Assembly: GCA_031425315.1 (NCBI GenBank)
Contig: JANPJC010000283.1
Location: 10,108-74,107, forward strand
Source of the DNA: Chitinophagales bacterium
Lineage (GTDB): Bacteria > Bacteroidota > Bacteroidia > Chitinophagales > Chitinophagaceae
Length of the DNA: 64,000 nt
Direction of reading: 5' to 3'
The stretch's first letter is position 1. Every line of letters begins with the position of its first letter. Below, piece by piece: positions 1 through 47,012 of the stretch. A program made the translations under genes and the position numbers. The notes beneath the pieces are model-generated. The model was not told where the DNA came from and did no database searches. It saw only the letters and a list, made by a program, of their open reading frames with translations.

Positions 1-124
1 AGGCTTTTATGTATTGATAATTTGCCTTGAATTGCTTTAGTTAGTCACTGTTTCAGCGAGGATAAATAAAAAGTCAAAAGAAGGCAGATTTTTAAGAACT
101 GAACAGGGAAATAAAAAAATGGTG

Positions 125-410
125 CCAGAAAACAGCAGTTGCGGATTGCGGGTTGCGGGTTGAAACAGCCAATACAGAGTTAGCGCCCTCATTGGTTTTT
201 TGAGATAAAGTTGACATCCGTTTAATCACGAATTAGTGTCAATTAACTTCCGCTCCAAATCAGCGTTATTGTTGTATTCACCAACATCAATTCAGGATTG
301 AAAAAATTTTGTACCTCCGTGGATCTCCTGTATTATTCTCCGTAAATCTCCGCGTCCTGCGGTTAAACCAGCTACGGCTGTTCCAACCTGCAACCCACAA
401 CCAGCATGTT
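125..410. repeat. complete small copy of the composite repeat element with inverted termini
   Basis: Plus head GCAGTTGCGGATTGCGGGTTGCGGGTTGAAACAGCCAATACAG (131-177). Internal CTCCGTGGATCTCCTGTATTATTCTCCGTAAATCTCCG. Minus head CGGCTGTTCCAACCTGCAACCCACAACCAGC (~370-405), which is the revcomp of GGTTGTG GGTTGCA GGTTGGAACAGCCG. Confidence 0.7.
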
Positions 411-611
411 TTTCTTAAAAATATTTTTACGACAGCTTTTGTATGGTGAAGGATATTCTATTATGTCGGCGGAACAATTTTTGAACTCGTAAACGTGTGC
501 TTTACCGGGTGATAAGCTCAATTGTTAATAATTATAAAAATTAAAGGAATTTAATAATAGCTGTTCAACATTGAACCCGCAATGCTGTTGAATGGATCAA
601 ACAGACATTAT

Positions 612-1319
612 ATGAAAACAATGGCCTTTCTGCTGCTTTTTAGTATTTCAGTTGCCGCTACTGCGCAACAGGCAAATAATTCCCGCACTGTATATTCAAT
701 CATTGGATTTGGAGCAGGCTTACAAAAATGGGATGGTTTAAATTCGCGTATTGCACAGTTCCCGCAATATGAACAGGTTAAAGATTACACTGCTTTACTC
801 CATCTGGGCTGGTTAAAAGAAAACAGGCGTTTTATTTCAGGTTCCAATATTATGCTGGGTAGCACAATGACCGGTGACAGGGATGAGAAAAGCAGCACCA
901 TGCGATTCTTCGGTATCGGCGCAGACTTTGGATATGATGTACTAAAAAGTGATAAGCTGATGCTTTATCCGCTTGTTGGTCTTGGTGGCGAATTTTATCA
1001 GGCCAGGTTTTATAAAGATAATTCCAATGTTGATTTTGATGATGTTCTCCAGTCTCCCACGGTTCAGAATAGTGTGAGGGCGCTGGGGCTTAAAAATTCA
1101 TTTTTTACTTACAAACTGGGTGTAGGCTTTAATGTGAAATCACCGGGCAATAAAGGGGCGATAGGACTACAGGCTTCGTACAATGGAAGCTTCCAGGATA
1201 AAGCATGGAGAAGCAATGATGGGCAAATGTTGGGCAGTGCTCCGAAAGATAGGCTGGGAAGGTTTCAATTGTCGATAATTTTCAGTGGAATAGCTGATGG
1301 AATGAAACACTCAAAATAA
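612..1319 (+). CDS. hypothetical secreted/outer-membrane beta-barrel-like protein (start moved to MKTMAFLL)
   Basis: Signal peptide MKTMAFLLLFSISVAATAQQ. Gly/aromatic-rich, beta-strand-like composition. No specific family recognised. Confidence 0.45.
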   Translation: MKTMAFLLLFSISVAATAQQANNSRTVYSIIGFGAGLQKWDGLNSRIAQFPQYEQVKDYTALLHLGWLKENRRFISGSNIMLGSTMTGDRDEKSSTMRFFGIGADFGYDVLKSDKLMLYPLVGLGGEFYQARFYKDNSNVDFDDVLQSPTVQNSVRALGLKNSFFTYKLGVGFNVKSPGNKGAIGLQASYNGSFQDKAWRSNDGQMLGSAPKDRLGRFQLSIIFSGIADGMKHSK

Positions 1320-1830
1320 AGGGAGAAGGGCGAAGTGAGAAGTAGTGAGCAGTAAGCAGTGAGCAGTGAGCAGCTAAATACATTTGGAGGTGCGATCACA
1401 AAAATAAAATTTAATAATCACAAGTGGGGCTGCCCGGTTACATTAACCGGGCAGTTTTATTATATGATATTTCTATTTTTAGCACATGAAAAAGTCTTTA
1501 GATAGAAGTCATAAATTAGGCTGTTCATCTCCGTTAAACTCAAAACCTCTGCTAAACTCCGTGGCCTATTGGAAGTCTTTAGTCGCGAGTCATAAGTCAT
1601 AAGTACTCACGGCATTCAATTTGAAAACCGTTTTTGCCCACGGAGTTGAGCGGAGAAGTTGAGTTGAGCCGAGATATCAAACACTTTTGATATTGCTGAC
1701 TGGATATAATTCGATAGTTCGGCTGTTCATCTCCGTTAAACTCAAACCTCTGCTAAACTCCGTGGCCTATTGAAAGTCATTAGTCGCGAGTCAGAAGTCA
1801 CTAGTACAACCCAAAAAACGATTGAATCCA
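1320..1830. repeat. composite repeat locus: heptamer head directly after the stop codon + two ~205-bp direct copies of a CTCCGTTAAACTC...CCGTGGCC hairpin unit
   Basis: AGGGAGA AGGGCGA AGTGAGA AGTAGTG AGCAGTA AGCAGTG AGCAGTG AGCAGC at 1320-1373. Units at ~1512-1620 and ~1717-1805 share GGCTGTTCATCTCCGTTAAACTCAAA(A)CCTCTGCTAAACTCCGTGGCCTATTG(G/A)AAGTC(T/A)TTAGTCGCGAGTCA. Confidence 0.8.
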
Positions 1831-2825: not shown

Positions 2826-3340
2826 TCAAACGTGATACTGTTTTCCCGAACCTTTCCGTCCTTTCCGACTTCCCGGCTATGTATTAGGTTAGGTGAATGA
2901 CATCAAGGGCTTTTTTTGCCGGTGAGGCGGGGAGAACGGAAACGAATACACGGGAATAGTTGCATACAAAATTCCATCTTAATCATGTTTGAAATTTTCC
3001 CGAAACTTGCCGTTCTTTCCGTCTTCCCGGCTATGTGTTGTGAAATTGATACTGGATGATATTCAACCGCAGTAGAAGGTAAGCCGGAAAACGCGGGAAT
3101 GATGAACCGGAAATAGATAATTGCATTTATTTCCCGAACCTTGCCGTCCTTTTCGTTTTCCCGGCTATGTATAGTGAAATTGATACTGGATGATATTCAA
3201 CTGCTGTAGCCGGGAGCCGGAAAATGCGGGAATGAAGAAATGAAATTCGTTTATTGCTTGTATTTTTTCCCGAACCTTGCCGTCCTTTTCGTCTTCCCGG
3301 CTATGTATAGTGAAATTGATACTGGATGATGCATTTGAAA
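2826..3340. repeat. tandem array of about four ~133-bp units (TTCCCGAACCTTGCCGTCC...CTTCCCGGCTATGTATAGTGAAATTGATACTGGATGAT...)
   Basis: Direct repeats with CCCGGCTATGT at ~2868, 3027, 3160 and 3293. Each unit has an internal imperfect inverted repeat (TTCCCG...CCCGGCTA versus TAGCCGGGAGCCGGAAAA(T/C)GCGGGAA). Confidence 0.85.
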
Positions 3341-3389
3341 TAGAACAAAGTTCTAACCTGTGAGTAATTCCTTCTGAACCTCACAGTTC

Positions 3390-14934: not shown

Positions 14935-15618
14935 ATGAATATGAAACATGTAATAGTGAGCGGCGCCACTGGGAACCTTGGACAGGCAGTCGTGCAAAAA
15001 TTTTTAACAGAAGGATTTGCTGTTAGTGGTACGGCCCGGTCCCCAAATAAAGAACAAAAACACTCACACAATAATTACAATTTATTTGATGTTGATCTTT
15101 CAGATGAAACTGCGGCAGAAGATGTTGTGAATTCAGTGATTAAAAAAAACGGACGCATTGACATTGCAGTATTAACTGCAGGTGGCTTTGCTATGGGAAG
15201 TTTAAAAGACAGCAAATCATCTGCAATATTACAGCAGTACAAATTGAATTTCGAAACAGCTTACCACCTGGCGCGTCCCATATTTATGCAGATGTTGAAA
15301 CAGGGTTATGGAAGAATATTTTTCATCGGTAGCATGGCCGGGCTCGATGCCTCAAAATCAAAAGGCATGACGGGTTACGGTTTATCAAAATCACTGGTGA
15401 TACGGCTTAGTGAATTGATCAATGAAGAAGCGCGGGGTACTGATATTGTTAGTTCGGTAGTGATACCAGGAACAATTGATACACCACAGAACAGGGCTGC
15501 CATGCCGGATGCGGACTTTTCTAAATGGGTGAATGCTGATGATATTGCAAACATTATTTACCTGCACACCACGCCGGAAATGAGTACGAATAGAGAGACG
15601 ATGATTAAGATTTATTGA
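14935..15618 (+). CDS. SDR family short-chain dehydrogenase/reductase
   Basis: N-terminal VSGATGNLG Rossmann motif. Catalytic Y-x3-K (YGLSK). Confidence 0.85.
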   Translation: MNMKHVIVSGATGNLGQAVVQKFLTEGFAVSGTARSPNKEQKHSHNNYNLFDVDLSDETAAEDVVNSVIKKNGRIDIAVLTAGGFAMGSLKDSKSSAILQQYKLNFETAYHLARPIFMQMLKQGYGRIFFIGSMAGLDASKSKGMTGYGLSKSLVIRLSELINEEARGTDIVSSVVIPGTIDTPQNRAAMPDADFSKWVNADDIANIIYLHTTPEMSTNRETMIKIY

Positions 15619-15619
15619 G

Positions 15620-16680
15620 GCACTATGCAATAGGCAATAGCGAACAGCCAATACAGATTTTAGGTATGACAAATACTTTCCATTTCAGTTGAATATTTTG
15701 TGATAGAGTTTCTCCGTGAATCTCCTGTATATCATCTCCTGCTGTTTCTCCGTGTAACAAAACTATTTTGGAGACAAAGTTAACGCCGGATTTCGAGTTG
15801 AACGAAGAAGGGCTGTTTCTCAGCTTACCTCATAACCTCCGTTAAACTCCGTGGCCGAAAAATATCATCATTTGGGATCAACAGATTTAAAAGCCTGGAC
15901 ACAATACAGGCTTTAGGTAAAACAACACTCCGGACATTCGGCTTTCATTTGGCCACAGAGATAAGCGGAGATTTTGAGTTGAACGGAGAGTCGTTGTATT
16001 GGCTGTTCCTCAGCTTACCTAATAACCTCCGTTAAACTCCGTGGCCGAAAAAATATCATCATTTGGGATCAGCAAATTTAAAAGCCTGGACACAATACAG
16101 GTTTTAGGTATAACAACACTCCGGACATTCGACTTTCATTTGGCCGCAGAGTTAAGCGGGGATTTTGAGTTGAACGGAGAGTCGCTGTATTGGCTGTTCC
16201 TCAGCTCACCTCAAAACCTCCGTTAAACTCCGTGGCCGAAAAAAGTATTTGGGTAAATAAATTCAAAAGTTCGGAAACAGAGGGCCACTAAGAAACAAAG
16301 GACACAAAGGAACAGCCAATACAGGTTTTATGTTTTAGGTATTAGGTTCGCCCAATACTTTCCATTTCAATTGAATATTTTGTGAAAGAGTTTCTCCGTG
16401 AATCTCCTGTATTTCATCTCCTGCTGTTTCTCCGTGTAACAAACCATTTTGGAGATACAGTTAAGCCTGGATTTCGAGTTGGACGAAGAAGGGCTGTTCC
16501 TCAGCTCACCTCAAAACCTCCGTTAAACTCCGTGGCCGAAAAAAGTATTTGGTTAAGTAAATTCAAAAGTTCGGAAACAGAGGGCCACTAAGAAACAAAG
16601 GACACAAAGGCACAGCCACTAGGGGTTTTATGTTTTATGTTTTAGTTAAATACATGGCTACCAATTATCCTATTGACTTA
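15620..16680. repeat. ~1-kb composite intergenic repeat locus (heptamer head + GAACAGCCAATACAG core + CTCCGTGAATCTCCTGTAT and CTCCGTTAAACTCCGTGGCC hairpin modules; internal duplications)
   Basis: Core at 15642-15656 and 16310-16325. Reverse cores at ~15999 and ~16185. About 190-bp direct duplicates at 15838-16025 and 16026-16212. 15660-15870 is repeated at 16330-16550. Confidence 0.85.
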
Positions 16681-20837: not shown

Positions 20838-21263
20838 ATGAAAAAACTAATTGCATTACTTACGCTGATCACTGTCTTTATTTCATGCACCAAAGAAAAT
20901 GCTACACCGGAAACGCCAGTAAATGAAAATGTTGATACAACCACAACCATGGTGCAGGTCATGGGTAGTTTTATTAATGGCCCATATGGAACAGTGTCGG
21001 GATCGGCTGAAATAAGGAAAGAGTTTGATGGTGATTTTATTCTGGCACTCACGAATATGAAAATCTCCAACGGTCCTGACCTTCATGTGTATTTATCGAA
21101 GGAAGTGCAGCCTGTTAATTTTATAGATCTGGGCAAATTAAAATCGACTGTAGGCAATCAGGTTTACGCTATATCGGGATCGCCTAATTTCACTGAATAT
21201 AAATATGCACTGATACATTGCCAGCAATACAATCATCTTTTCGGGAGTACGGAGTTAAAGTGA
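20838..21263 (+). CDS. DM13-like domain lipoprotein
   Basis: Lipobox FISCTK. GSF..G..G...G.....F..L.....GPDLHVYL pattern typical of DM13 domains. Confidence 0.5.
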   Translation: MKKLIALLTLITVFISCTKENATPETPVNENVDTTTTMVQVMGSFINGPYGTVSGSAEIRKEFDGDFILALTNMKISNGPDLHVYLSKEVQPVNFIDLGKLKSTVGNQVYAISGSPNFTEYKYALIHCQQYNHLFGSTELK

Positions 21264-21289
21264 AAGGATCTGATCGTTCCTCATAGTTT

Positions 21290-21520
21290 CGATTTCTTTA
21301 TTTTCCGGCAAGATTTTTTCCCGGGTGAAATTTTTTTTCGGGCCGCGTAGGTGTCAGACACCTCGAAGCGTTTTGTTTGATCAAATCCCGCGAAGGTGTC
21401 TGACACCTAAGCGGCCCGAAGTTTTCGATTTTCTTTTTTACGGCAAAGGTTTTTTTCCGCTTTGAAAATGTTTTTTTCCCAATAGTTTTGTGCATTACCG
21501 CCGGCAAACCATATCTGCCG
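21290..21520. repeat. inverted-repeat element with two copies of the palindrome GGTGTCAGACACC around a TTGATCAA loop, flanked by T-rich direct repeats
   Basis: Left arm CGGGCCGCGTAGGTGTCAGACACCTCGAAGCG and right arm CGCGAAGGTGTCTGACACCTAAGCGGCCCG are near-perfect reverse complements. Flanks TTCGATTTCTTTATTTTCCGGCAAGATTTTTTCC and TTCGATTTTCTTTTTTACGGCAAAGGTTTTTTTCC. Confidence 0.85.
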
Positions 21521-21622
21521 CCTGTCAGCTATCACCCCAAATTCGGTGAAAGCATCCGGTATTTCCGGTCAGCAGATACCCTTGATCGTTCCAATAATTT
21601 TGACCTTATAAAATAAAAAATT

Positions 21623-22903
21623 ATGAGACGATTCAAAGACACACTGGCCGGTATTATATTTTTATCCGCCTTTACGATTTTATCCTGTTCCAGGAGTAGC
21701 GTTCCGGAGCAATCTTTTAAAAACATTTCAGGTCAAACTATTTTAGAATGGAATGAAATGGCTTACCAGGCCTTCGACGGGCCTGCGTATCAGCACTCTC
21801 TTATGGCTTCAAGGATCAATGTAATGGTGCATATTGCCATGCACGATGCAGTGAATGCCATTGAACCTGTATATGCCACCTACGTATTTAAGGGCAGGGA
21901 TATTTTGGCAGAGCCCGTTACGGCCGCATCAACTGCAGCTTACGAAATTCTTCTGCATGAAATTCCACAGCAAAAAGCAATGCTGGATTCAGGGCTCGCT
22001 GCTTCACTCAGCAAAATTCCTGCTGGTGATGCTAAAGAAAGAGGTATAGTAATTGGCAAACAGGCCGCGCTTGCGCTCATCGCACTACGTAGCAATGACG
22101 GAGCTAATGGCAATCCAATTGCAGAAATTCCAGTAAGTACTGTTCCAGGTAAATACCAGGTTGTACCACCATTTAATTTTGTCTTCGCTCCTTTTTGGGA
22201 AAACGCAAAATTATTTGGCATTCAAAACAAAAACCAGTTCAGGCCTGCAGCACCACCATCATTAAACAGCGAAAGATATGCGCAGGACTACAATGAAGTA
22301 AAAGCAATCGGCAAACTCCAATCTGACACGCGCACAGCAGATGAATCTGCTTATGCAAAATTCTGGTATGAGTTTTCAGAAGCCGGATGGAACCGCGTAG
22401 CGAGGACATTAGTGATGAAGAAACAACTTAACCTGGCAGAAACAGCGCGTTTGTTTGCTTTGGTGGATATGGCAATAGCAGATGCCTATATTGCCGGCTG
22501 GGACGCCAAATTTGCGCACGATTACTGGCGCCCATTTACGGCTATTCGTAACGGTGATAAAGATGGTAATGCTCAAACTACTCCAGATGCAACCTGGGAA
22601 CCCGCGGAGCCCACTCCACCCGTTCAGGATTTTCCGAGTACGCATAGTGCTCTTGGAAATGCAGCAGCGACAGTGTTGGTAAGATTAATCGGCAACAATA
22701 ATTCATTCAGCATGACATCTCCAACTGCTTTACCTGAAAGCAAGGAGCGCTCATTCAGTACAATCTACCAGGCAGCTGATGAAAATGCAAATTCAAGAGT
22801 GATAGCCGGAATACATTTCAGGTTCAGTTGCATGGCCGGACAACAACTAGGCAATGAAATTGGCAATTGGATTGTTGATCATCAATTAAAAACCTTAAAG
22901 TAA
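21623..22903 (+). CDS. vanadium-dependent haloperoxidase / PAP2-superfamily (acid phosphatase-like) protein
   Basis: Lipoprotein-like N-terminus. Motifs YWRPFTAIR, PSTHSALG and SRVIAGIHF match the PAP2/haloperoxidase active-site signature. Confidence 0.7.
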   Translation: MRRFKDTLAGIIFLSAFTILSCSRSSVPEQSFKNISGQTILEWNEMAYQAFDGPAYQHSLMASRINVMVHIAMHDAVNAIEPVYATYVFKGRDILAEPVTAASTAAYEILLHEIPQQKAMLDSGLAASLSKIPAGDAKERGIVIGKQAALALIALRSNDGANGNPIAEIPVSTVPGKYQVVPPFNFVFAPFWENAKLFGIQNKNQFRPAAPPSLNSERYAQDYNEVKAIGKLQSDTRTADESAYAKFWYEFSEAGWNRVARTLVMKKQLNLAETARLFALVDMAIADAYIAGWDAKFAHDYWRPFTAIRNGDKDGNAQTTPDATWEPAEPTPPVQDFPSTHSALGNAAATVLVRLIGNNNSFSMTSPTALPESKERSFSTIYQAADENANSRVIAGIHFRFSCMAGQQLGNEIGNWIVDHQLKTLK

Positions 22904-22985: not shown

Positions 22986-23429
22986 TTGCGTTTTGTTAGA
23001 TACCTTTATTGGATCGTGAAGTATATAAAAGTTGCATGCAGGTATTTTATTCTACTGGTTTGGCTGATTAACGGTCTTTACTGTAAGTTGCTCAATGGAG
23101 TTCCGCGTCATAGGGAGATTGTCGCACGGATTTTAGGCGATGATTATGCAGTACTCCTTACCAGACTAATTGGCGTTGGAGAGTTACTTATTTTTGTCTG
23201 GATACTCAGCCGGCTTTGGCTCAAATGGTGTGCCTTTGTGCAAATTATATTGATTGCCGTTATGAACACCATTGAGATTTTAATGGCACCCGATCTTTTG
23301 CTATTTGGAAAATACAATGGTCTTCTTGCCATCGCGTTAATGATCATTATATATGTTGATACTTTTGTGCTGAATGACAAACCTCGTTATGCATATCCGC
23401 AAAATCCGAAACGTCAACCAATGAGCTGA
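22986..23429 (+). CDS. small membrane protein (DoxX-like)
   Basis: Three to four hydrophobic helices. No specific motif. Confidence 0.35.
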   Translation: MRFVRYLYWIVKYIKVACRYFILLVWLINGLYCKLLNGVPRHREIVARILGDDYAVLLTRLIGVGELLIFVWILSRLWLKWCAFVQIILIAVMNTIEILMAPDLLLFGKYNGLLAIALMIIIYVDTFVLNDKPRYAYPQNPKRQPMS

Positions 23430-23431
23430 TC

Positions 23432-24169
23432 ATGTTCAATTTTTTAAAGAATCACCCCTTCCCGGTAAAAAGTTTTTTTGAGCAGTCATTGGTACTCACT
23501 TATGCCCTACCCATCGAACTGATTAAATCGCAATTACCCCCATGTTTTGTTCCCGATACTTTTAATGATGAATATGGTTTTGCTGCTGTGGCGATTGTGA
23601 AAACAAAATCCTTGAGACCGGCAATGTTTCCTTCATTTTTGGGAAATGATTTTATCCTGGTGGGTTATAGAGTTTTTGTGCGCTATACCAATAATGCAGG
23701 TAAGCGTTTGCGTGGTTTGTATATATTGGGATCAGAAACCGACAAGGTTTTAATGAAAACGTTAGGTAGCATCTTTACACAATACAAATATGGAATTACC
23801 GATATCGAGTTTAGTAAAGAAGGCCCTGAGCTGACAATAATATCGCAACGATCTGAGGTCAATATAAAAGCAAAAACAACGCCTGATGCAATATTGCCGG
23901 AGCAATCACCCTTTGGGAACTGGAAAGAAGCACGCAGGTTCGCGGGGCCGTTACCGTTTACGTTTAGCTACCTCGAAAAAAATAAGGAAGTGCTGATTGT
24001 AGAAGGAATACGCGAAAACTGGGACCCTTTACCCGCCGAAATCTCAACTGCGGAAGTAGGTTATATGGATAAACGATTTCATGGCAACTATCAACTGGCA
24101 AGCGCATTTTACGTAGAGAATATTCCATATCAATGGAAAAAAGGAAGGATTGAAAAATGGCGGCAATAA
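23432..24169 (+). CDS. hypothetical protein (DUF2071-like)
   Basis: Composition and length only. Overlaps the next gene by 13 bp. Confidence 0.35.
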   Translation: MFNFLKNHPFPVKSFFEQSLVLTYALPIELIKSQLPPCFVPDTFNDEYGFAAVAIVKTKSLRPAMFPSFLGNDFILVGYRVFVRYTNNAGKRLRGLYILGSETDKVLMKTLGSIFTQYKYGITDIEFSKEGPELTIISQRSEVNIKAKTTPDAILPEQSPFGNWKEARRFAGPLPFTFSYLEKNKEVLIVEGIRENWDPLPAEISTAEVGYMDKRFHGNYQLASAFYVENIPYQWKKGRIEKWRQ

Positions 24170-24912
24170 AAAGAAAATCTTTACAAGGAGTGCTGCAAAT
24201 TCTGGAATTCAACAGGCATTTCTTCCTGATTGCAATCGGTGTAATTGCCAGCCTTCTTTTTACAATCCGATACCTTCCGACCTCAATTCGTGTGATCGTC
24301 CCGGTAACTATAGTAATAATTTGTATCACTATTTTAAATGCACTTATAGTTTCGTGGTATGTTTACGATTGGTCAGGCTTGTATAATCTTCAATGGATCA
24401 GAAAACGTATCAAAACAATTCCGCGCCTAATATTCAATATTCATGCAGGTTTCGATGAAACAAGCGCGCTGCTCAAAAATGAATTTCCGGATGCAGGATT
24501 AAAAGTTTTTGATTTCTACGATCCTGCAAAGCATCGGGAAATTTCAATTAAAAGAGCGCGCAAAAAATATCCACCTTATCCTGATACCATTAGTATTGAA
24601 ACAAACAATTTTCCTAAACAGGATACATCTGCAGATTTGATTTGTCTTTTCCTGAGCGCACATGAAATAAGAGATGAACAGGAAAGAATTCAATTTTTAA
24701 TTGAGCTGAAGGAAAACCTTACAGACGATGGACAAATAATCCTCGTTGAACATCTGAGAGACTGGCGAAATTTCCTTGCCTACACTTTTGGTGTCTTTCA
24801 TTTTCACTCAAAATTAAAGTGGGAGCGCAACATCAACCTGGCAGGGTTGTGTGTTACACATCAACACAAGTACACTTCATTTATTTCAGTTTATTATTTA
24901 AACAAAAAATGA
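24157..24912 (+). CDS. membrane-anchored class I SAM-dependent methyltransferase-like protein
   Basis: N-terminal TM segments then a methyltransferase-like core (DLICLFLSAHEIRDEQERIQFLIELKENLTDDGQIILVEH). Confidence 0.45.
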   Translation: MAAIKRKSLQGVLQILEFNRHFFLIAIGVIASLLFTIRYLPTSIRVIVPVTIVIICITILNALIVSWYVYDWSGLYNLQWIRKRIKTIPRLIFNIHAGFDETSALLKNEFPDAGLKVFDFYDPAKHREISIKRARKKYPPYPDTISIETNNFPKQDTSADLICLFLSAHEIRDEQERIQFLIELKENLTDDGQIILVEHLRDWRNFLAYTFGVFHFHSKLKWERNINLAGLCVTHQHKYTSFISVYYLNKK

Positions 24913-25310
24913 TACTCCACTTACAAATAATCGGTAGTCTCTCCATATTGCTGGCCCTTTCACATGTAGGGTTTCCAGGTTATTTTAAATGGAAAGATGG
25001 TCTGAAAGATTTGTCATTGATCAACAGGCAGATGATGTTGGTGCATACATTTTTTATCGCACTGACAGTTTTCCTTACCGGGGTGCTAATGATATATAAT
25101 CCAGAAGATTTGCTCAATACCAGGATCGGCAACCAGGTGCTTTGGGGACTTGGAATCTTTTGGGGCATCAGGTTATTGGCGCAATTTTTCTTTTACAGTG
25201 CAGCACTCTGGAGAGGTAAGAAGTTCGAAACAGTAATTCATATTCTGTTTGCAATATTATGGCTGTATTTTACCGTGGCATTATTCTGGATTGCTGGAAC
25301 CACCTTGTAA
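24909..25310 (+). CDS. small membrane protein (start moved to ATG overlapping the upstream stop in an ATGA arrangement)
   Basis: ATG at 24909-24911 overlaps TGA 24910-24912 of the upstream gene. Four hydrophobic helices. Confidence 0.4.
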   Translation: MILHLQIIGSLSILLALSHVGFPGYFKWKDGLKDLSLINRQMMLVHTFFIALTVFLTGVLMIYNPEDLLNTRIGNQVLWGLGIFWGIRLLAQFFFYSAALWRGKKFETVIHILFAILWLYFTVALFWIAGTTL

Positions 25311-25835
25311 AGTGCGAAATACGAAGTGAGAAGTACGAAGTAAACAGCCCCGGACAGGTGGTTATGTTATTGTTTAATAAGAGTGAATGGGTGAATAGGG
25401 CAATATGATAATCGACAGCCGACGATTTCAACTAAAACTTAATCCATCTTCTTATAACTTTTTTCGGGCCACGGGGATGAGCGGAGAGTTTGAGATAAGC
25501 GGAGAACAGCCAGTGCATCAATACTCTGTTTAATTCAAAACCACTGTTTATCTATGTCGCCAAAGAAAATTAAAATAATTGCAAAAGTAAATAGCCTGCA
25601 AATATTGTATACTTTAAATATTTACTTACAACTTTAAAAATGTAACAAAGAAATTCTGTTACACGGAGAAACAGCAGAAGATAAAAGGCAAGAGATTCAC
25701 GGAGATTTCCTCTTCAGATAACAACCAGACTAAATGAACAACATCTTTATTAAATGTATAATTTAAAAGGTATAACTGTATTGGCTGTTCCCTGCTTACT
25801 GCTCACTACTTACTATTCACTAATCATCATTATCT
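25311..25835. repeat. complete composite repeat element with inverted heptamer+core termini
   Basis: Plus-oriented head AGTGCGAAATACGAAGTGAGAAGTACGAAGTAAACAGCC at 25311. Minus-oriented head (revcomp TAGTGAATAGTAAGTAGTGAGCAGTAAGCAGGGAACAGCCAATACAG) at 25775-25822. Internal GGCCACGGGGATGAGCGGAGAGTTTGAGATAAGCGGAG and TGTTACACGGAGAAACAGCAG...GATTCACGGAGA modules. Confidence 0.8.
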
Positions 25836-35023: not shown

Positions 35024-35480
35024 AATAGCAGACGGAAGACGGTAGACGGTAGGCAGTAGAGAACAGCCAATACAAAGACGGTAGACGGTAGACGGTAGGC
35101 AGTAGAGAACAGCCAATACAGGTTTTACGTTATAAGTTATATGTTTAACACGCCTGTTAGTCTTCGGCGATCAACTGTAGCGGCAAGGCATGCCTTGCCG
35201 CTACAAGAACAGCCAATACAGGTTTTACTTTATAAGTTATATGTTTAACACGCCTGTTAGTCTTCGGCGTACAACAGTAGCGGCAAGACATGCCTTGCCG
35301 CTACAAGAGCAGCCAATACTGGTTTTACGTTATAAGTTATATGTTTAACACGCCTGTGAGTCTTCGGAGTACAACAGTAGCGGCAAGGCATGCCTTGCCG
35401 CTACAAGAACAGCCAATACACACTGAAGTACTTGAATGATATCAAATCGTACTGTTGTATTAACGTAAAACGTAAAACTT
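35024..35480. repeat. repeat locus: two heptamer heads (GACGGTA)n + core, then three tandem ~121-bp units each carrying a perfect hairpin GTAGCGGCAAGGCATGCCTTGCCGCTAC
   Basis: AACAGCCAATACA at 35062, 35109, 35207, ~35327 and 35407. Unit = core + TTTTACGTTATAAGTTATATGTTTAACACGCCTGTTAGTCTTCGGCG + hairpin. Confidence 0.85.
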
Positions 35481-35542
35481 ACAACGTATAACTGTATCGC
35501 CTGTGCCTTTTGCCTATCTTTATTCCACAACCAATTTCCCAA

Positions 35543-42350: not shown

Positions 42351-43280
42351 TATATTAGTGAGCAGTAAGCAGTAAGTAGTGAGCAGTAAGCAGTGAGCAG
42401 TAAGTAGTGAGCAGTGAGCAGTAAGCAGTGAGCAGCCGATGGCTGTTATTTCTCCGTTAAACTCAAATGCTCCGTTCAACTCCGTGGCCAAAAAAAATTT
42501 ACTAACAAGAAAGTTTTAGTTTTCTAATGCACGCCACAGAGATAAGCTGAGGTTTTGAGATAAGCGGAGAAAAAATGGCGGTACAAATTATGGCAAATAT
42601 GATTGCTTAATAGAATTATTAGTTGCTAACCTCCGTTAATCTCAATTGCTCCGTTCAACTCCGTGGCCCAAAAAATCTACCATCAAGAAAATTTAAGTTT
42701 TCTAAGGCAAGCCACAGAGATAAGCTGAGGTTTTGAGATAAGCGGAGAAAAAAAGGCAATTCATTTTAGGACTAATATGAAAGCTTGATAGATTTGTTTA
42801 CTGTTATGCTCCGTTAAACTCAAATGCTCCGTTCAACTCCGTGGCCAAAAAATCTAACATCCAGAAAATTTAAGTTTTCTAAGGCAAGCCACAGAGATAA
42901 GCAGCGGTTTTGAGAGGAACGGAGAAAAAATGGCGATATAAATTATGGCAAATATGATTGCTTAATAGAATTATTCGTTGTTATCCTCCGTTAATCTCAA
43001 TTGCTCCGCTCAACTCCGTGGCCCAAAAAATCTACTATCACGAAAATTTAAGTTTTCTAATGCAGGCTACTGCTGTATTGGTTACAATTCTCTTGTGCCC
43101 AAGTGTTTTTTGCTACACGGAGGAACAGCCGGAGCTTAAATACAGGAGATTCACGGAGATAACTCAAGAATATTATATAGCCCGTTATCAGCTACTGTCT
43201 ACCTTCTACCAACTTTTGTATCGTCTGTTGCCTACTTTCTGTTTTCTACCGTCTACCTACTCTTGTATTGGCTGCTAACG
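42351..43280. repeat. complete composite repeat element: plus head (AGTGAGC/AGTAAGC)x13, four tandem ~175-185-bp hairpin units, minus head (GGTAGAC-type heptamers + core)
   Basis: Units start at ~42454, 42640, 42812 and 42985 with CTCCGTTAA(A/T)CTCAA(A/T)TGCTCCGTTCAACTCCGTGGCC paired to GCCACAGAGATAAGCTGAGGTTTTGAGATAAGCGGAG. CTCCGTGAATCTCCTGTAT module (reverse) at ~43110-43150. Reverse core CTTGTATTGGCTGC at 43262-43275. Confidence 0.85.
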
Positions 43281-43753
43281 TAAAACTGAATTGGCTCATC
43301 GAATACCCGGGCAGTTGAATCGAAATTGGGATACCTAGCCATAGGCATCAGCTGCCCTTCACAAAACAACTGATCCATTTTTAATCCTTTGCCAATCAGA
43401 GCCTGCTTTACATGGTCTTTGAAATTTTTCCCCTGAACTGCCAATGGAATCGCTCCGGAAATAATAACATTTTCATTCTTATATGCGCTAATTGCTAATT
43501 TCCGGCCGTCCAAATCCGCAGGAGCTATTTGTACAGTTTTGATTAACGGATAATTTCCCTCCCGAAAAAAAATAACCGCTGAATCACTTTTTACGCCAGC
43601 TACTTTTTGTAGGGCAGCCTCTAAAGTTTTCAGCGGTTTGCTGATAGTACCTGCGGCATTATCATTTCCACTTTCGGCCACAAATATGGTTTGTGAAAAA
43701 CAAATCATCACAGGCTGAAAAACGCAGAGGATCAATATTTTAATGAAATTCAT
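43253..43753 (-). CDS. N-terminal fragment of a right-handed beta-helix (pectate-lyase-like) secreted protein; C-terminus and stop provided by the repeat element
   Basis: Signal peptide + AESGNDNAAGTISKPLKTLEAALQK beta-helix N-cap, but only 166 aa. The last residues SSQYKSR* are encoded by the revcomp of the repeat core GCAGCCAATACAAGAGTAGGTAG. Confidence 0.5.
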   Translation of the reverse strand: MNFIKILILCVFQPVMICFSQTIFVAESGNDNAAGTISKPLKTLEAALQKVAGVKSDSAVIFFREGNYPLIKTVQIAPADLDGRKLAISAYKNENVIISGAIPLAVQGKNFKDHVKQALIGKGLKMDQLFCEGQLMPMARYPNFDSTARVFDEPIQFYVSSQYKSR

Positions 43754-43815: not shown

Positions 43816-45255
43816 CTATTCCATCCTGTTCTTTTTGCTCCAGCTTTTATGCTTGGCTCCATCCATTTTTACAATCTTTGGTGTAAACCGTCCAACCACA
43901 TCTACTAATACCTGCTGACTTTTCATTACTGATTCAATATCCTTGTAAGCGAAAGGCGATTCATCCAACCCTCCTCCCATCAATTTCACTCCATGCATTG
44001 CCAGGATATCTTTCATCGCTTTTTCAGTAATTGACTGCAATGCCGCAGTTCTGCTCATTTTGCGCCCTGCACCATGTGAGGCTGATGATAGGGAAGACGG
44101 TTCTCCTTTTCCTTTTACAATAAAACCATCAGCCGTCATAGACCCAGGAATAATCCCTAAAACATTTTTTTCCGCAGGTGTCGCGCCCTTTCTGTGCACT
44201 ATCACTTCCCTGCCTTCAAACATTTCTTTCCAGGCAAAATTGTGATGGTTTTCCACCCGCACGATGGGTTGTTCTCCAAGCTGCAGAGCAATTTTATCAT
44301 GAATGATATGATGACATGCCGATGCATAGTCGCCTGCAAGTTTCATTGCAATCCAGTACTGTGCGCCTTCTTCTTCATCCAGGTTCAGCCATGCAAGGTT
44401 GGCAGCCTCGGATGGTAATCGCCTTTTTTCTTTTGCGATCTTAGTAAAATGATTGGCGATTGTTGCACCTAATCCACGTGAACCTGAATGCGACAACAAG
44501 CCCATATATTCACCAACAGGCAGTCCCAAAACATCATCCTGTTCTTTAATGTCTACGACACCAAATTCAACGAAATGATTTCCGGAGCCGGAGCTTCCTA
44601 ACTGCCGCCAAGCTTTATCCTGCAGTCCTTTGAGTAAAGGCACATCATTAAAAGCCGGATCTGTCAACACATCATGATCAGCAGGTTTCACAAATTGTGA
44701 ACCGTTTCCAAACAATGTGGCTTCATTCAGTTCACGAACAAAATACTGCTCACGCTTTTGCAATTCGCCTGGAGAAAGACTGAATACACTTAAACACATA
44801 CGGCATCCAATATCCACTCCCACGCCATATGGTATCACAGCATTTTCAGTAGCCAGCACCCCGCCGATTGGTAAACCATAACCGCTATGGGCATCCGGCA
44901 TTAATGCACCAGCCACCGCAACAGGTATTTTAGAAGCAGTTTGCATTTGCATTAAGGCCCCTTCCTCAATATGTTCAGCTCCAAATATCGAAAACGAAAT
45001 TCCCTGCTGATTTAAATCAATTGTTTCCCATGACGTTGGAGGTGGCGGCATAAAATAGTGAGCAATCAGTTGCAGCTTTTCATATTCCATATACTCAGAA
45101 GGTGCAGCCTGTATACGTTTCAGCAATTCAAGAACTTCTTCTTTATTGCTATGTTTAAACTGCTGCTGCATCACCTGCATGGCCACACTAATAACGGGCC
45201 CTTCAGGATATCCTATTGCCCGCAATTCTTTCCCGCTTAATTTTAATTTTGACAT
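43816..45255 (-). CDS. rtcB: RNA-splicing ligase RtcB
   Basis: 479 aa. Metal-binding and GAGR-type motifs (SASHGAGRKMS), HNFAWKE, NHAGVD-like core. Confidence 0.9.
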   Translation of the reverse strand: MSKLKLSGKELRAIGYPEGPVISVAMQVMQQQFKHSNKEEVLELLKRIQAAPSEYMEYEKLQLIAHYFMPPPPTSWETIDLNQQGISFSIFGAEHIEEGALMQMQTASKIPVAVAGALMPDAHSGYGLPIGGVLATENAVIPYGVGVDIGCRMCLSVFSLSPGELQKREQYFVRELNEATLFGNGSQFVKPADHDVLTDPAFNDVPLLKGLQDKAWRQLGSSGSGNHFVEFGVVDIKEQDDVLGLPVGEYMGLLSHSGSRGLGATIANHFTKIAKEKRRLPSEAANLAWLNLDEEEGAQYWIAMKLAGDYASACHHIIHDKIALQLGEQPIVRVENHHNFAWKEMFEGREVIVHRKGATPAEKNVLGIIPGSMTADGFIVKGKGEPSSLSSASHGAGRKMSRTAALQSITEKAMKDILAMHGVKLMGGGLDESPFAYKDIESVMKSQQVLVDVVGRFTPKIVKMDGAKHKSWSKKNRME

Positions 45256-46702: not shown

Positions 46703-47012
46703 ATCTGTTTGTTTTGGTTTTTTGTTATAAATGATTACTATAAGCCTTCAATTATCACGGGACATTACCTGTTTAAAAATTCGGTTACATCATTTCAACT
46801 TTCCCAAATGGCCGGGAAAACCAAAATCATTTAACATCCATCGTCAACATGGTGAGTCGCAGGTAAATCACTGAATGTAACCGGCAGCTTTTTTGCAAAC
46901 CACCATTACCGGCTTACAGTAACCATTTATGGATCGCCATTTGAGAAGTGGCGGACTTCGTTAGGTCTACAGCCTGAGTGTAGTGCTTTCGCCGCTAAGC
47001 TATTCCGCCATA

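Follow-up and report, generated by a model that had tools for sequence, protein, structure and literature searches.

Among the small palindromic repeats of bacteria, those that accompany transposases of the Y1 (HUH, IS200-like) kind come closest to the element considered here. In REPINs, two repetitive extragenic palindromic (REP) sequences form a doublet that is mobilised by RAYTs (Bertels and Rainey 2011, PMC3116915). TIRYTs are the counterpart of the Group 1 RAYTs of Bertels et al. (2017, PMC5581495) and of subclass 2.1 in the TnpA-Y1 classification of Quentin et al. (2018, PMC6006769). Their genes are bounded by terminal inverted repeats (TIRs) that share the consensus GGGGWSAS, and these repeats make up moderately abundant families arranged in dimers or clusters, part of which are self-complementary (Di Nocera, De Gregorio and Rocco 2013, PMC3733652). 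The proteins of subclass 2.1 are long, with helix-turn-helix domains at the C-terminus (PMC6006769), and Group 1 is the widest-ranging RAYT group, with flanking 16-mers that are repeated only about 12 times per replicon (PMC5581495). Here we analyse an inverted-repeat element that is present twice in a stretch of 64,000 nucleotides from a Chitinophagales bacterium (GenBank assembly GCA_031425315.1, contig JANPJC010000283.1, positions 10,108 to 74,107 of the forward strand), referred to as the window throughout. The reading that we favour, with a probability of roughly 0.6, takes this element for a REPIN-like, non-autonomous doublet of an end motif of the TIRYT type. A Y1 transposase that acts on single-stranded DNA in its folded form would have put it in place, with vertical inheritance ever since.

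An earlier sequence-only reading of the window had described an element with two arms of about 30 bp around a loop containing TTGATCA, and both loci bear this description out, with arms of about 30 nt and strong predicted folds (coordinates of all features are collected in Table 1). The minimum free energy of the RNA is -59.5 kcal/mol for copy 1 (z -9.6) and -46.7 kcal/mol for copy 2 (z -7.3; the minus strand of copy 2 gives -41.5 kcal/mol), and as single-stranded DNA the two copies fold at -35 kcal/mol (z -12.5) and -23.4 kcal/mol (z -7.5), respectively. Each arm contains a 13-mer core, GGTGTC-W-GACACC (also written GGTGHCWGDCACC), in the form GGTGTCAGACACC or GGTGTCTGACACC, and it thus occurs four times in the window. 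The core had been taken for a perfect palindrome, which holds for its two halves but not for its centre: it is a 6+1+6 palindrome with an asymmetric central base, A in one arm and T in the other. At up to two mismatches the four sites give eight strand-matches, where 0.54 would be expected and where none of 100 shuffles reached eight, and the 64-kb window holds no further core site, even a degenerate one at this threshold. The distance between cores, previously put at about 45 bp, is exactly 45 bp from start to start at both loci.

The repeated unit is larger than the hairpin. Copy 2 is the reverse complement of copy 1, with 85% identity over about 105 columns and 90% over 62 nt, and the unit of about 100 bp continues beyond the hairpin in both directions as a short A/T-rich flank, with AAAATnGnAAACTTCG at one end and an A8-9TT run at the other. 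A covariance model (R1) built from three copies finds only copies 1 and 2 in the window, both of them intergenic, which corresponds to a density of 2 per 64 kb. When the two window copies are compared with those of two relatives, a Logan contig (L121) and a 6.47-Mb JGI genome (L246), the 21-nt inner arms and the TTGATCA show no difference among the four full copies, whereas variation is found in the outer stems and the remainder of the loop. The T-rich direct repeats that had been noticed on either side of copy 1 are real as well, and are 83% identical to each other over 34 nt.

The core itself recurs far outside this clade. We scanned one genome per species, in 186,000 species, for two cores 22-42 bp apart, and among the matches listed there are at least 120 stretches with core pairs, distributed over at least nine phyla including the Bacteroidota of the window. 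They comprise Pseudomonadota (Achromobacter, Bordetella, Chromatiales, Hyphomicrobium, Allosphingosinicella), Actinomycetota (Gaiellales, Thermoleophilia, Acidimicrobiia, Bifidobacteriaceae, Collinsella), Spirochaetota (Treponema), Myxococcota (Myxococcaceae), Acidobacteriota (Vicinamibacterales, Aminicenantes), Omnitrophota, Planctomycetota and Bacillota (Clostridia). Flanks and spacers are unrelated from lineage to lineage, and two arrangements recur: inverted core doublets, many of which fold as arm-core-arm long hairpins like those of the window, and tandem core arrays with periods of 21-71 bp, which often begin right after a stop codon. Doublets and tandem arrays with unrelated flanks are the behaviour of REP repeats and bacterial interspersed mosaic elements (BIMEs), rather than that of operators.

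Since fetched loci also contain roughly 1-2 other paired 13-mer palindromes per Mb (in 1.66 Mb, only three of the paired palindromes were unrelated or near-related to the core), raw counts of the core cannot exclude coincidence. We therefore considered whether many independent REP families might share the motif by chance. When core positions 5 and 9 were left free in a metagenome scan, the identical palindromic pairs among the matches listed were strongly skewed, with T/A at 37 loci, C/G at 23, A/T at 15 and G/C at 1, although these palindromes share their outer sequence and are alike in composition; T-G and C-A intermediates were found too. This skew, and above all the repeated adjacency to TIRYT genes described below, led us to set chance sharing aside. 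Several broader searches returned nothing of use. The exact two-arm pattern of the window family had no match in the metagenome scan, the paired core had none among viral contigs, so that no phage link appears there, and a protein search with the stop-free translation of the element gave no candidate. A full-text literature search for the 13-mer and its variants retrieved chance primer matches only, with the exact 13-mer in none of the papers searched, and the supplements of PMC3733652 do not contain these sequences. All-against-all clustering of the open reading frames (ORFs) near cores was uninformative until it was restricted to core-flanked ORFs, as it returned only common families, such as transporters within Alcaligenaceae.

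The core is also associated with Y1 transposases. A hidden Markov model (HMM) of Y1 proteins, run over about 250 fetched loci, gave matches in only six of them, and each match lies beside a core or a one- or two-base variant of it. At L115, the exact GGTGTCTGACACC stands twice, from 35 bp after the Y1 gene and on one side only. At L203 and L238 the C/G variant stands on both sides of the gene. In L203 the two sites are inverted and lie 178 bp before the ATG and 13 bp past the stop; in L238 the distances are 140 bp on the upstream side and 35 bp past the stop. Two further loci hold fragments of a Y1 gene whose stop is followed 45 bp later by a core, GGTGCCTGACACC at L130 and GGTGTCTGTCACC at L236, and the sixth, L103, has a Y1 pseudogene 376 bp away from an exact T/A core. 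The core family is thereby found 13-65 bp from the ends of TIRYT-like ORFs, that is, 140-180 bp upstream of likely start codons and 13-45 bp after stops, whereas by a rough estimate a single-copy gene would be expected by chance about 0.2 times in total inside these loci.

The linked proteins match Pfam Y1_Tnp and the NCBIfam model "REP-associated tyrosine transposase" (E 1e-18 to 1e-20), the latter (REP_Tyr_transpos) with scores of 65-73 bits, which lie under the curated cut-off of 80. Using the TIRYT and RAYT reference sequences in supplement 5 of PMC3733652, we found by BLASTP that they are 36-46% identical (E 1e-32 to 1e-57) to the published TIRYTs gbm2474, dau2153, rba2408, pfs148A and sml1152, as against about 20% (E 1e-5 to 1e-9) to classical RAYTs. 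Their HUH motif reads NHFH or NHWH and their tyrosine motif Y(V/I)xxNP. Repeats around TIRYT genes also resemble the core: the gene on an Iodobacter fluviatilis plasmid has 21-nt exact inverted repeats reading GGGGTCAGAG, that on a Pseudomonas aeruginosa plasmid has 22-nt exact inverted repeats reading GGGGACAGAT, and in Skermanella mucosa GGGGTCAGAG is found upstream of the TIRYT gene only, without an inverted partner downstream. These repeats agree with the published GGGGWSAS. Compared with the plasmid repeat GGGGTCAGAG, GGTGTCAGAC matches at 8 of 10 positions, and GGTGTCAG fits the published GGGGWSAS consensus at 7 of 8, with T rather than G at position 3. The palindrome variants GGGGTC-N-GACCCC and GGGGTCTGACACC occur in the fetched loci.

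From these comparisons we propose that the 13-bp core represents, in palindromic form, the end motif that Y1 transposases of the TIRYT type recognise. A transposase encoded elsewhere would recognise the folded motif on single-stranded DNA, for instance on the lagging strand, a mechanism that we infer because the known IS200/IS605 and RAYT enzymes work in this manner. The doublet would then have been copied or moved into intergenic DNA in an ancestor of this clade of Chitinophagaceae, and its copies would have been passed on vertically from there. The presence of two copies in 64 kb is compatible with the moderate repeat number of Group 1.

Several observations weigh against this reading. No transposase gene of any kind lies within the window, and neither the window nor 90 kb of its relatives yields a Y1 transposase gene by tblastn or HMM; only two copies are seen in the DNA of this genome, that is, in the 64-kb window. 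The exact T/A core stands beside a transposase gene on one side only, and the two-sided cases are those of the C/G variant. The core is one position off GGGGWSAS and is palindromic, which the three plasmid repeats examined are not. Its enrichment over an arbitrary palindrome rests only on the internal control (G/C, one locus among the matches listed) and on the transposase linkage. To our knowledge, transposition by a TIRYT has not been demonstrated biochemically. Quentin et al. did not find REP-like sequences around subclass 2.1 genes (PMC6006769). Finally, the copy before the pfkB gene is 86-87% identical to that of a relative despite saturated synonymous sites, which would not be expected of a purely selfish, decaying element, and to which we return below.

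Measured against the described systems, the window element shares most with TIRYT repeats (TIRtrons) and with REPINs. As in TIRtrons, the core family stands inverted on both sides of TIRYT-like genes, albeit in other lineages, and the published dimer or cluster families, some self-complementary, parallel the present repeats; the window motif differs in being folded back into a 6+1+6 palindrome, in forming an inverted doublet within a unit of about 100 bp that has a conserved loop TTGATCA of its own, and in having no TIRYT gene near its copies. As in REPINs, two inverted palindromic units with a short spacer make one long hairpin, the window copies are extragenic and persist vertically at orthologous sites, and there is a link to a Y1 transposase family of the single-copy type. 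On the other hand, the conserved 5' GTAG/GTGG tag of REPINs is missing: counting the first G of the core, the four arms in the window have GTAG, TTAG, TTAG and CCAG, and a comparison of 453 oriented cores of other taxa shows no conserved flank position. The linked transposases moreover belong to the TIRYT group and not to RAYT Groups 2 or 3, and the density of 2 in 64 kb looks low compared with the hundreds of copies per genome of classical REPINs. The subterminal hairpins of IS200/IS605 elements are alike in that an HUH/Y1 enzyme recognises folded single-stranded DNA, which for the window unit is our supposition, but they are short, imperfect and located at the ends of an element that carries its transposase, whereas the window unit has no gene.

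In a more general form, one could speculate that GGTG-H-C-W-G-D-CACC is the conserved cognate site of Group 1/TIRYT/subclass 2.1 enzymes, the RAYT group that is the largest and the least well understood, that these maintain REPIN-like hairpin doublets and arrays in at least nine phyla including Bacteroidota, and that one doublet has been domesticated in this clade as the strongly constrained leader of a stress-type operon of pfkB and P-type ATPase genes. We offer this wider statement tentatively, and regard it as somewhat doubtful when taken as a whole. The shared 13-bp core links doublets and arrays of distant phyla to the TIRYTs, a widespread group without demonstrated activity or an agreed DNA partner, and a defined 13-mer provides a direct substrate for TIRYT binding and cleavage assays.

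The relatives inform us about the history of both copies. The protein of the pfkB-family kinase gene downstream of copy 2 has its closest named relative in Pollutibacter soli (68% identity). Copy 2 occupies the same place, in the same orientation, in L121 and L246; the former contig begins exactly within the element, at the core, and such breaks are a usual effect of repeats. In three more distant Chitinophagaceae, only 14, 45 or 12 bp separate pfkB from the gene before it, too little to accommodate the element. The presence of copy 2 in L121 and L246 and the lack of room in distant orthologues thus indicate a clade-specific insertion. At the site of copy 1, a relative (L244/L245) retains one decayed arm and part of the loop, GAAGGTGCCTGGCATCTGAGC, and the decayed arm carries a compensated C/G change at core positions 5 and 9. 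In 42 kb of the relative there are one copy and one relic. A compact, related palindrome is found in Pollutibacter soli (L122 8040-8100), where 42 nt of perfect palindrome, CCAGGTATCCGATACTTG/CAAGTATCGGATACCTGG, followed by GGCGGGTTTTGCCGGAAAAAAATTC, lie between two genes that converge; the core of this palindrome, GGTATC-S-GATACC, differs from that of the window by a double compensatory change (R1 29.6 bits, E 4e-5), and the same kind of GC-clamp and A-run tail comes after it.

The conservation of copy 2 is unusually strong. Between the window and L246, the pfkB proteins are 90% identical and the 4-fold degenerate sites of the gene only 34%, a level that corresponds to saturation, and other intergenic spacers are 42-64% identical; by comparison, the 160 bp before pfkB are 87% identical overall and the hairpin 86%. 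The 75 bp that precede the hairpin (52771-52845, including the initial 12 nt of the unit) agree with L246 (9876-9946) at 89% identity, and their conservation in the face of saturation implies that something besides the hairpin is also constrained there. Copy 1 has the same conservation pattern in another context and in the opposite orientation, so that the constraint seems to be the element's own, through protein recognition or structure. That the orthologous pfkB copy has nonetheless survived over such a distance suggests that it has come to serve the host in some way.

This raises the question of whether the element is mainly cis-regulatory, either as an operator pair for a dimeric protein, as the sequence-only reading had suggested, or as an RNA leader, controlling the pfkB and P-type ATPase genes and, separately, the haloperoxidase-like gene that follows copy 1. 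The conservation before pfkB, the invariant inner arms and TTGATCA, and the exact spacing of 45 bp at both window loci would all agree with such a role, as would a response-regulator/cNMP/Crp-type gene located 1 kb upstream of copy 2. What is repeated, however, is the whole unit of about 100 bp with its flanks, well beyond the palindromes, and since all four flanking genes lie on the plus strand, the two copies are oppositely oriented relative to transcription of the genes downstream. The distant pfkB orthologues do without the element, having spacers of 12-45 bp, the copy 1 site has decayed in a relative, and there are no more sites before other stress-type genes in the window or L246 (64 + 42 kb). 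In other phyla, the core forms long tandem arrays after stops and flanks transposase genes, and no Rfam family matches the element at its gathering score. Among the operator consensuses that we are aware of, such as those of WhiA (GACAC), CRP/FNR and GntR-type regulators, none fits the 13-mer and none spans the observed phyla. We thus regard a mainly regulatory element as unlikely, and paired operator sites are most likely not what the two loci represent, although the conservation of the pfkB copy speaks for them. A small palindromic repeat rather than a regulon signal is also how the two loci should be annotated, as motif-based regulon inference from them would mislead.

An exapted role of copy 2 is compatible with the REPIN-like doublet that we favour. 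The identity of 86-87% despite saturated synonymous sites makes a secondary cis-acting role plausible: copy 2 would have been kept under constraint and co-opted to serve the pfkB and P-type ATPase genes, either as a structured 5' leader or as a site for protein binding, and it probably now acts in cis in the pfkB leader. Copy 1, with the U-rich tail that follows its hairpin, may help to end the transcript of the DM13-domain gene before it. The element is then a repeat of an ordinary bacterial kind, of which one copy, that before a kinase gene, is unusually well conserved, and this copy is a candidate for a mobile-type hairpin retained by purifying selection in a 5' leader.

A further suggestion, that of a bidirectional terminator, can be generalised to the view that the hairpins are primarily intrinsic terminators or mRNA-stabilising stem-loops, as for the REPs of Escherichia coli, with no need for a mobile origin. 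Copy 1 agrees loosely with this, in that its hairpin lies 73 bp after the stop of the gene for a DM13-domain protein and is followed 3' on the plus strand by an interrupted U-rich tail, AAGTTTTCGATTTTCTTTTTT. In other phyla, the arrays that begin right after stops, and the low-GC genomes (L021, L013) that carry the core within A-run/T-run palindromes, as is typical of bidirectional terminators, point in the same direction. Copy 2 does not fit: on the plus strand its hairpin is followed by an A-run, the minus strand has no T-run, and it lies directly before a start codon, at a gene junction that is tight in relatives. A terminator scan called an intrinsic terminator at neither locus, and a terminator function would leave both the cross-phylum 13-mer and the linkage to Y1 transposases unexplained. 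As a primary identity for the element we find it improbable. The E. coli REP/BIME repeats, which serve as terminators, as stabilisers of mRNA and as binding sites for proteins, resemble it all the same as intergenic hairpins between co-directional genes, with a U-rich tail in the case of copy 1 and a plausible host-level role for the conserved copy, but their sequence is unrelated, and copy 2 is situated in a 5' leader before a start codon rather than at a 3' end. When Rfam was searched by E-value threshold, for the copy 1 region only, generic long-hairpin miRNA models appeared, far under their own thresholds. One weak sigma-70 promoter match, CTGACA-N16/17-AAAAAT, inside each copy was rejected as being at chance level and not of the Bacteroidota promoter type.

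Of the functions suggested initially, a small miniature inverted-repeat transposable element (MITE) came closest. A non-autonomous, mobile-type palindromic repeat is what we find, but of the Y1 (REP/REPIN/TIRYT) kind, without the terminal inverted repeats and target-site duplication of a MITE. The unit resembles classical MITEs such as Correia elements and ERIC in being small, non-coding, dispersed and hairpin-forming, and its internal inverted symmetry, intergenic location and two dispersed copies might suggest a derivation from a DDE-type insertion sequence. The symmetry is internal only, however, since the unit ends, AAAATnGnAAACTTCG and A8-9TT, do not form an inverted repeat with one another. 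There is no short target-site duplication at the ends, the 34-nt direct repeats at copy 1 being far too long, and no DDE transposase is nearby. The sole DDE-type gene beside cores, of the IS110 family, appears to have been inserted into a core cluster of Bordetella petrii. We consider a classical MITE very improbable. In B. petrii NSA17, this IS110-family gene (DEDD_Tnp_IS110 + Transposase_20) lies between two cores at two chromosomal places (L080 4166-5147 and L083 4176-5157); IS110/IS1111 elements target REP-like palindromes, which would fit this arrangement.

Table 1 Coordinates of the repeat units, their parts and adjoining features (window positions unless a relative is named)
Feature	Position	Strand	Basis or remark
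Copy 1, whole unit	21328..21432	- (orientation set by copy 2)	R1 107.8 bits, E 3.5e-28; 85% identical to copy 2
Copy 1, long hairpin	21336..21421	.	arms about 30 nt; one G/A mismatch in outer stem
Copy 1, left-arm core GGTGTCAGACACC	21350..21362	.	exact match
Copy 1, loop TTGATCA, inside 10-bp palindrome TTTGATCAAA	21377..21383	.	read from sequence
Copy 1, right-arm core GGTGTCTGACACC	21395..21407	.	exact match
Left T-rich direct repeat by copy 1	21287..21321	+	missing (alignment gap) from orthologous spacer of relative L244
Right T-rich direct repeat by copy 1	21423..21458	+	first ~14 nt inside unit; rest loosely alignable to L244 flank
Conserved non-coding stretch before copy 2, outside unit	52770..52833	+	includes repeat module D17 (52779-52806)
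Copy 2, whole unit	52834..52933	+	R1 115 bits, E 2.6e-30; abuts pfkB start codon
Copy 2, long hairpin	52847..52916	.	outer stem GCGTTA/TGGCGC, two G-T pairs on + strand
Copy 2, left-arm core GGTGTCAGACACC	52853..52865	.	exact match
Copy 2, loop TTGATCA	52876..52882	.	read from sequence
Copy 2, right-arm core GGTGTCTGACACC	52898..52910	.	exact match
pfkB-family kinase gene, leader holds copy 2	52933..53865	+	Pfam PfkB, E 2.4e-51
Orthologous copy of copy 2 in L246	9935-10030		R1 108.9 bits
Orthologous copy of copy 2 in L121	1-75		R1 65.6 bits; cut by contig end

The two genes downstream of the copies are as the sequence-only reading had placed them. Copy 1 lies between the DM13-domain gene (20838-21263) and a PAP2/vanadium-haloperoxidase-like gene (21623-22903), and its hairpin ends about 200 bp before the latter, within the 100-300 bp given earlier. 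Copy 2 lies between a DUF1003 gene (51983-52531) and the pfkB-family kinase gene, which is followed by the P-type ATPase gene; as had been stated, it sits immediately upstream of the kinase, the hairpin ending 17 nt ahead of the ATG at 52933. The wider neighbourhood of copy 2 (48522-56442) encodes ScdA/hemerythrin, a PAS histidine kinase, the response-regulator/cNMP/Crp regulator, DUF1003, pfkB and the P-type ATPase, to which the neighbourhoods in L121 and L246 add Usp, rhodanese and Hsp20 genes. We take this gene set to resemble a dormancy or stress set such as the DosR regulon of mycobacteria.

The spacers differ in gene content between the window and its relatives. An extra META-domain gene is found in the relative's spacer before the haloperoxidase-like gene (window 21263-21623, L244 8798-10001), and an extra Usp gene in that before pfkB (window 52531-52933, L246 8930-10001), while the window spacers hold repeats only. 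The window in turn has four additional genes (22986-25310) after the haloperoxidase-like gene.

The G+C content of the window is 40%, and its intergenic DNA is a mosaic of many further repeat families, of which the 400-bp spacer of copy 2 consists almost wholly. Such other repeats are located at 1326-1807, 2841-3360, 15611-16645, 25468-25833, 35030-35502, 42353-43286, 49433-49476 and 52516-52806. They include a 44-nt unit, CTCCGTTAAACTCAAA..CTCCGTGGCC, in 12 copies, tandem units of 100, 134-154, 178 and 191 bp, and heptamer runs (AGTGAGC/AGTAAGC, AGACGGT) that begin directly after stop codons; a similar heptamer run follows the DUF1003 stop in L246 (8925-9000).

Two minor observations concern other parts of this region. 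On the minus strand at 46949-47009, between a Band_7 gene and a WYL-domain regulator and next to RtcB (43816-45255), the score with the Rfam tRNA model is 29.3 bits, where the gathering score is 29, but no tRNA is predicted by ARAGORN. An RtcB repair module may have its tRNA-like or Y-RNA-like element here. Just to the left of the window, a Logan contig (L243 2407-4790) that overlaps window positions 1-1372 carries two kaiB-like genes, a kaiC-like double-ATPase gene, a histidine kinase and a response regulator.

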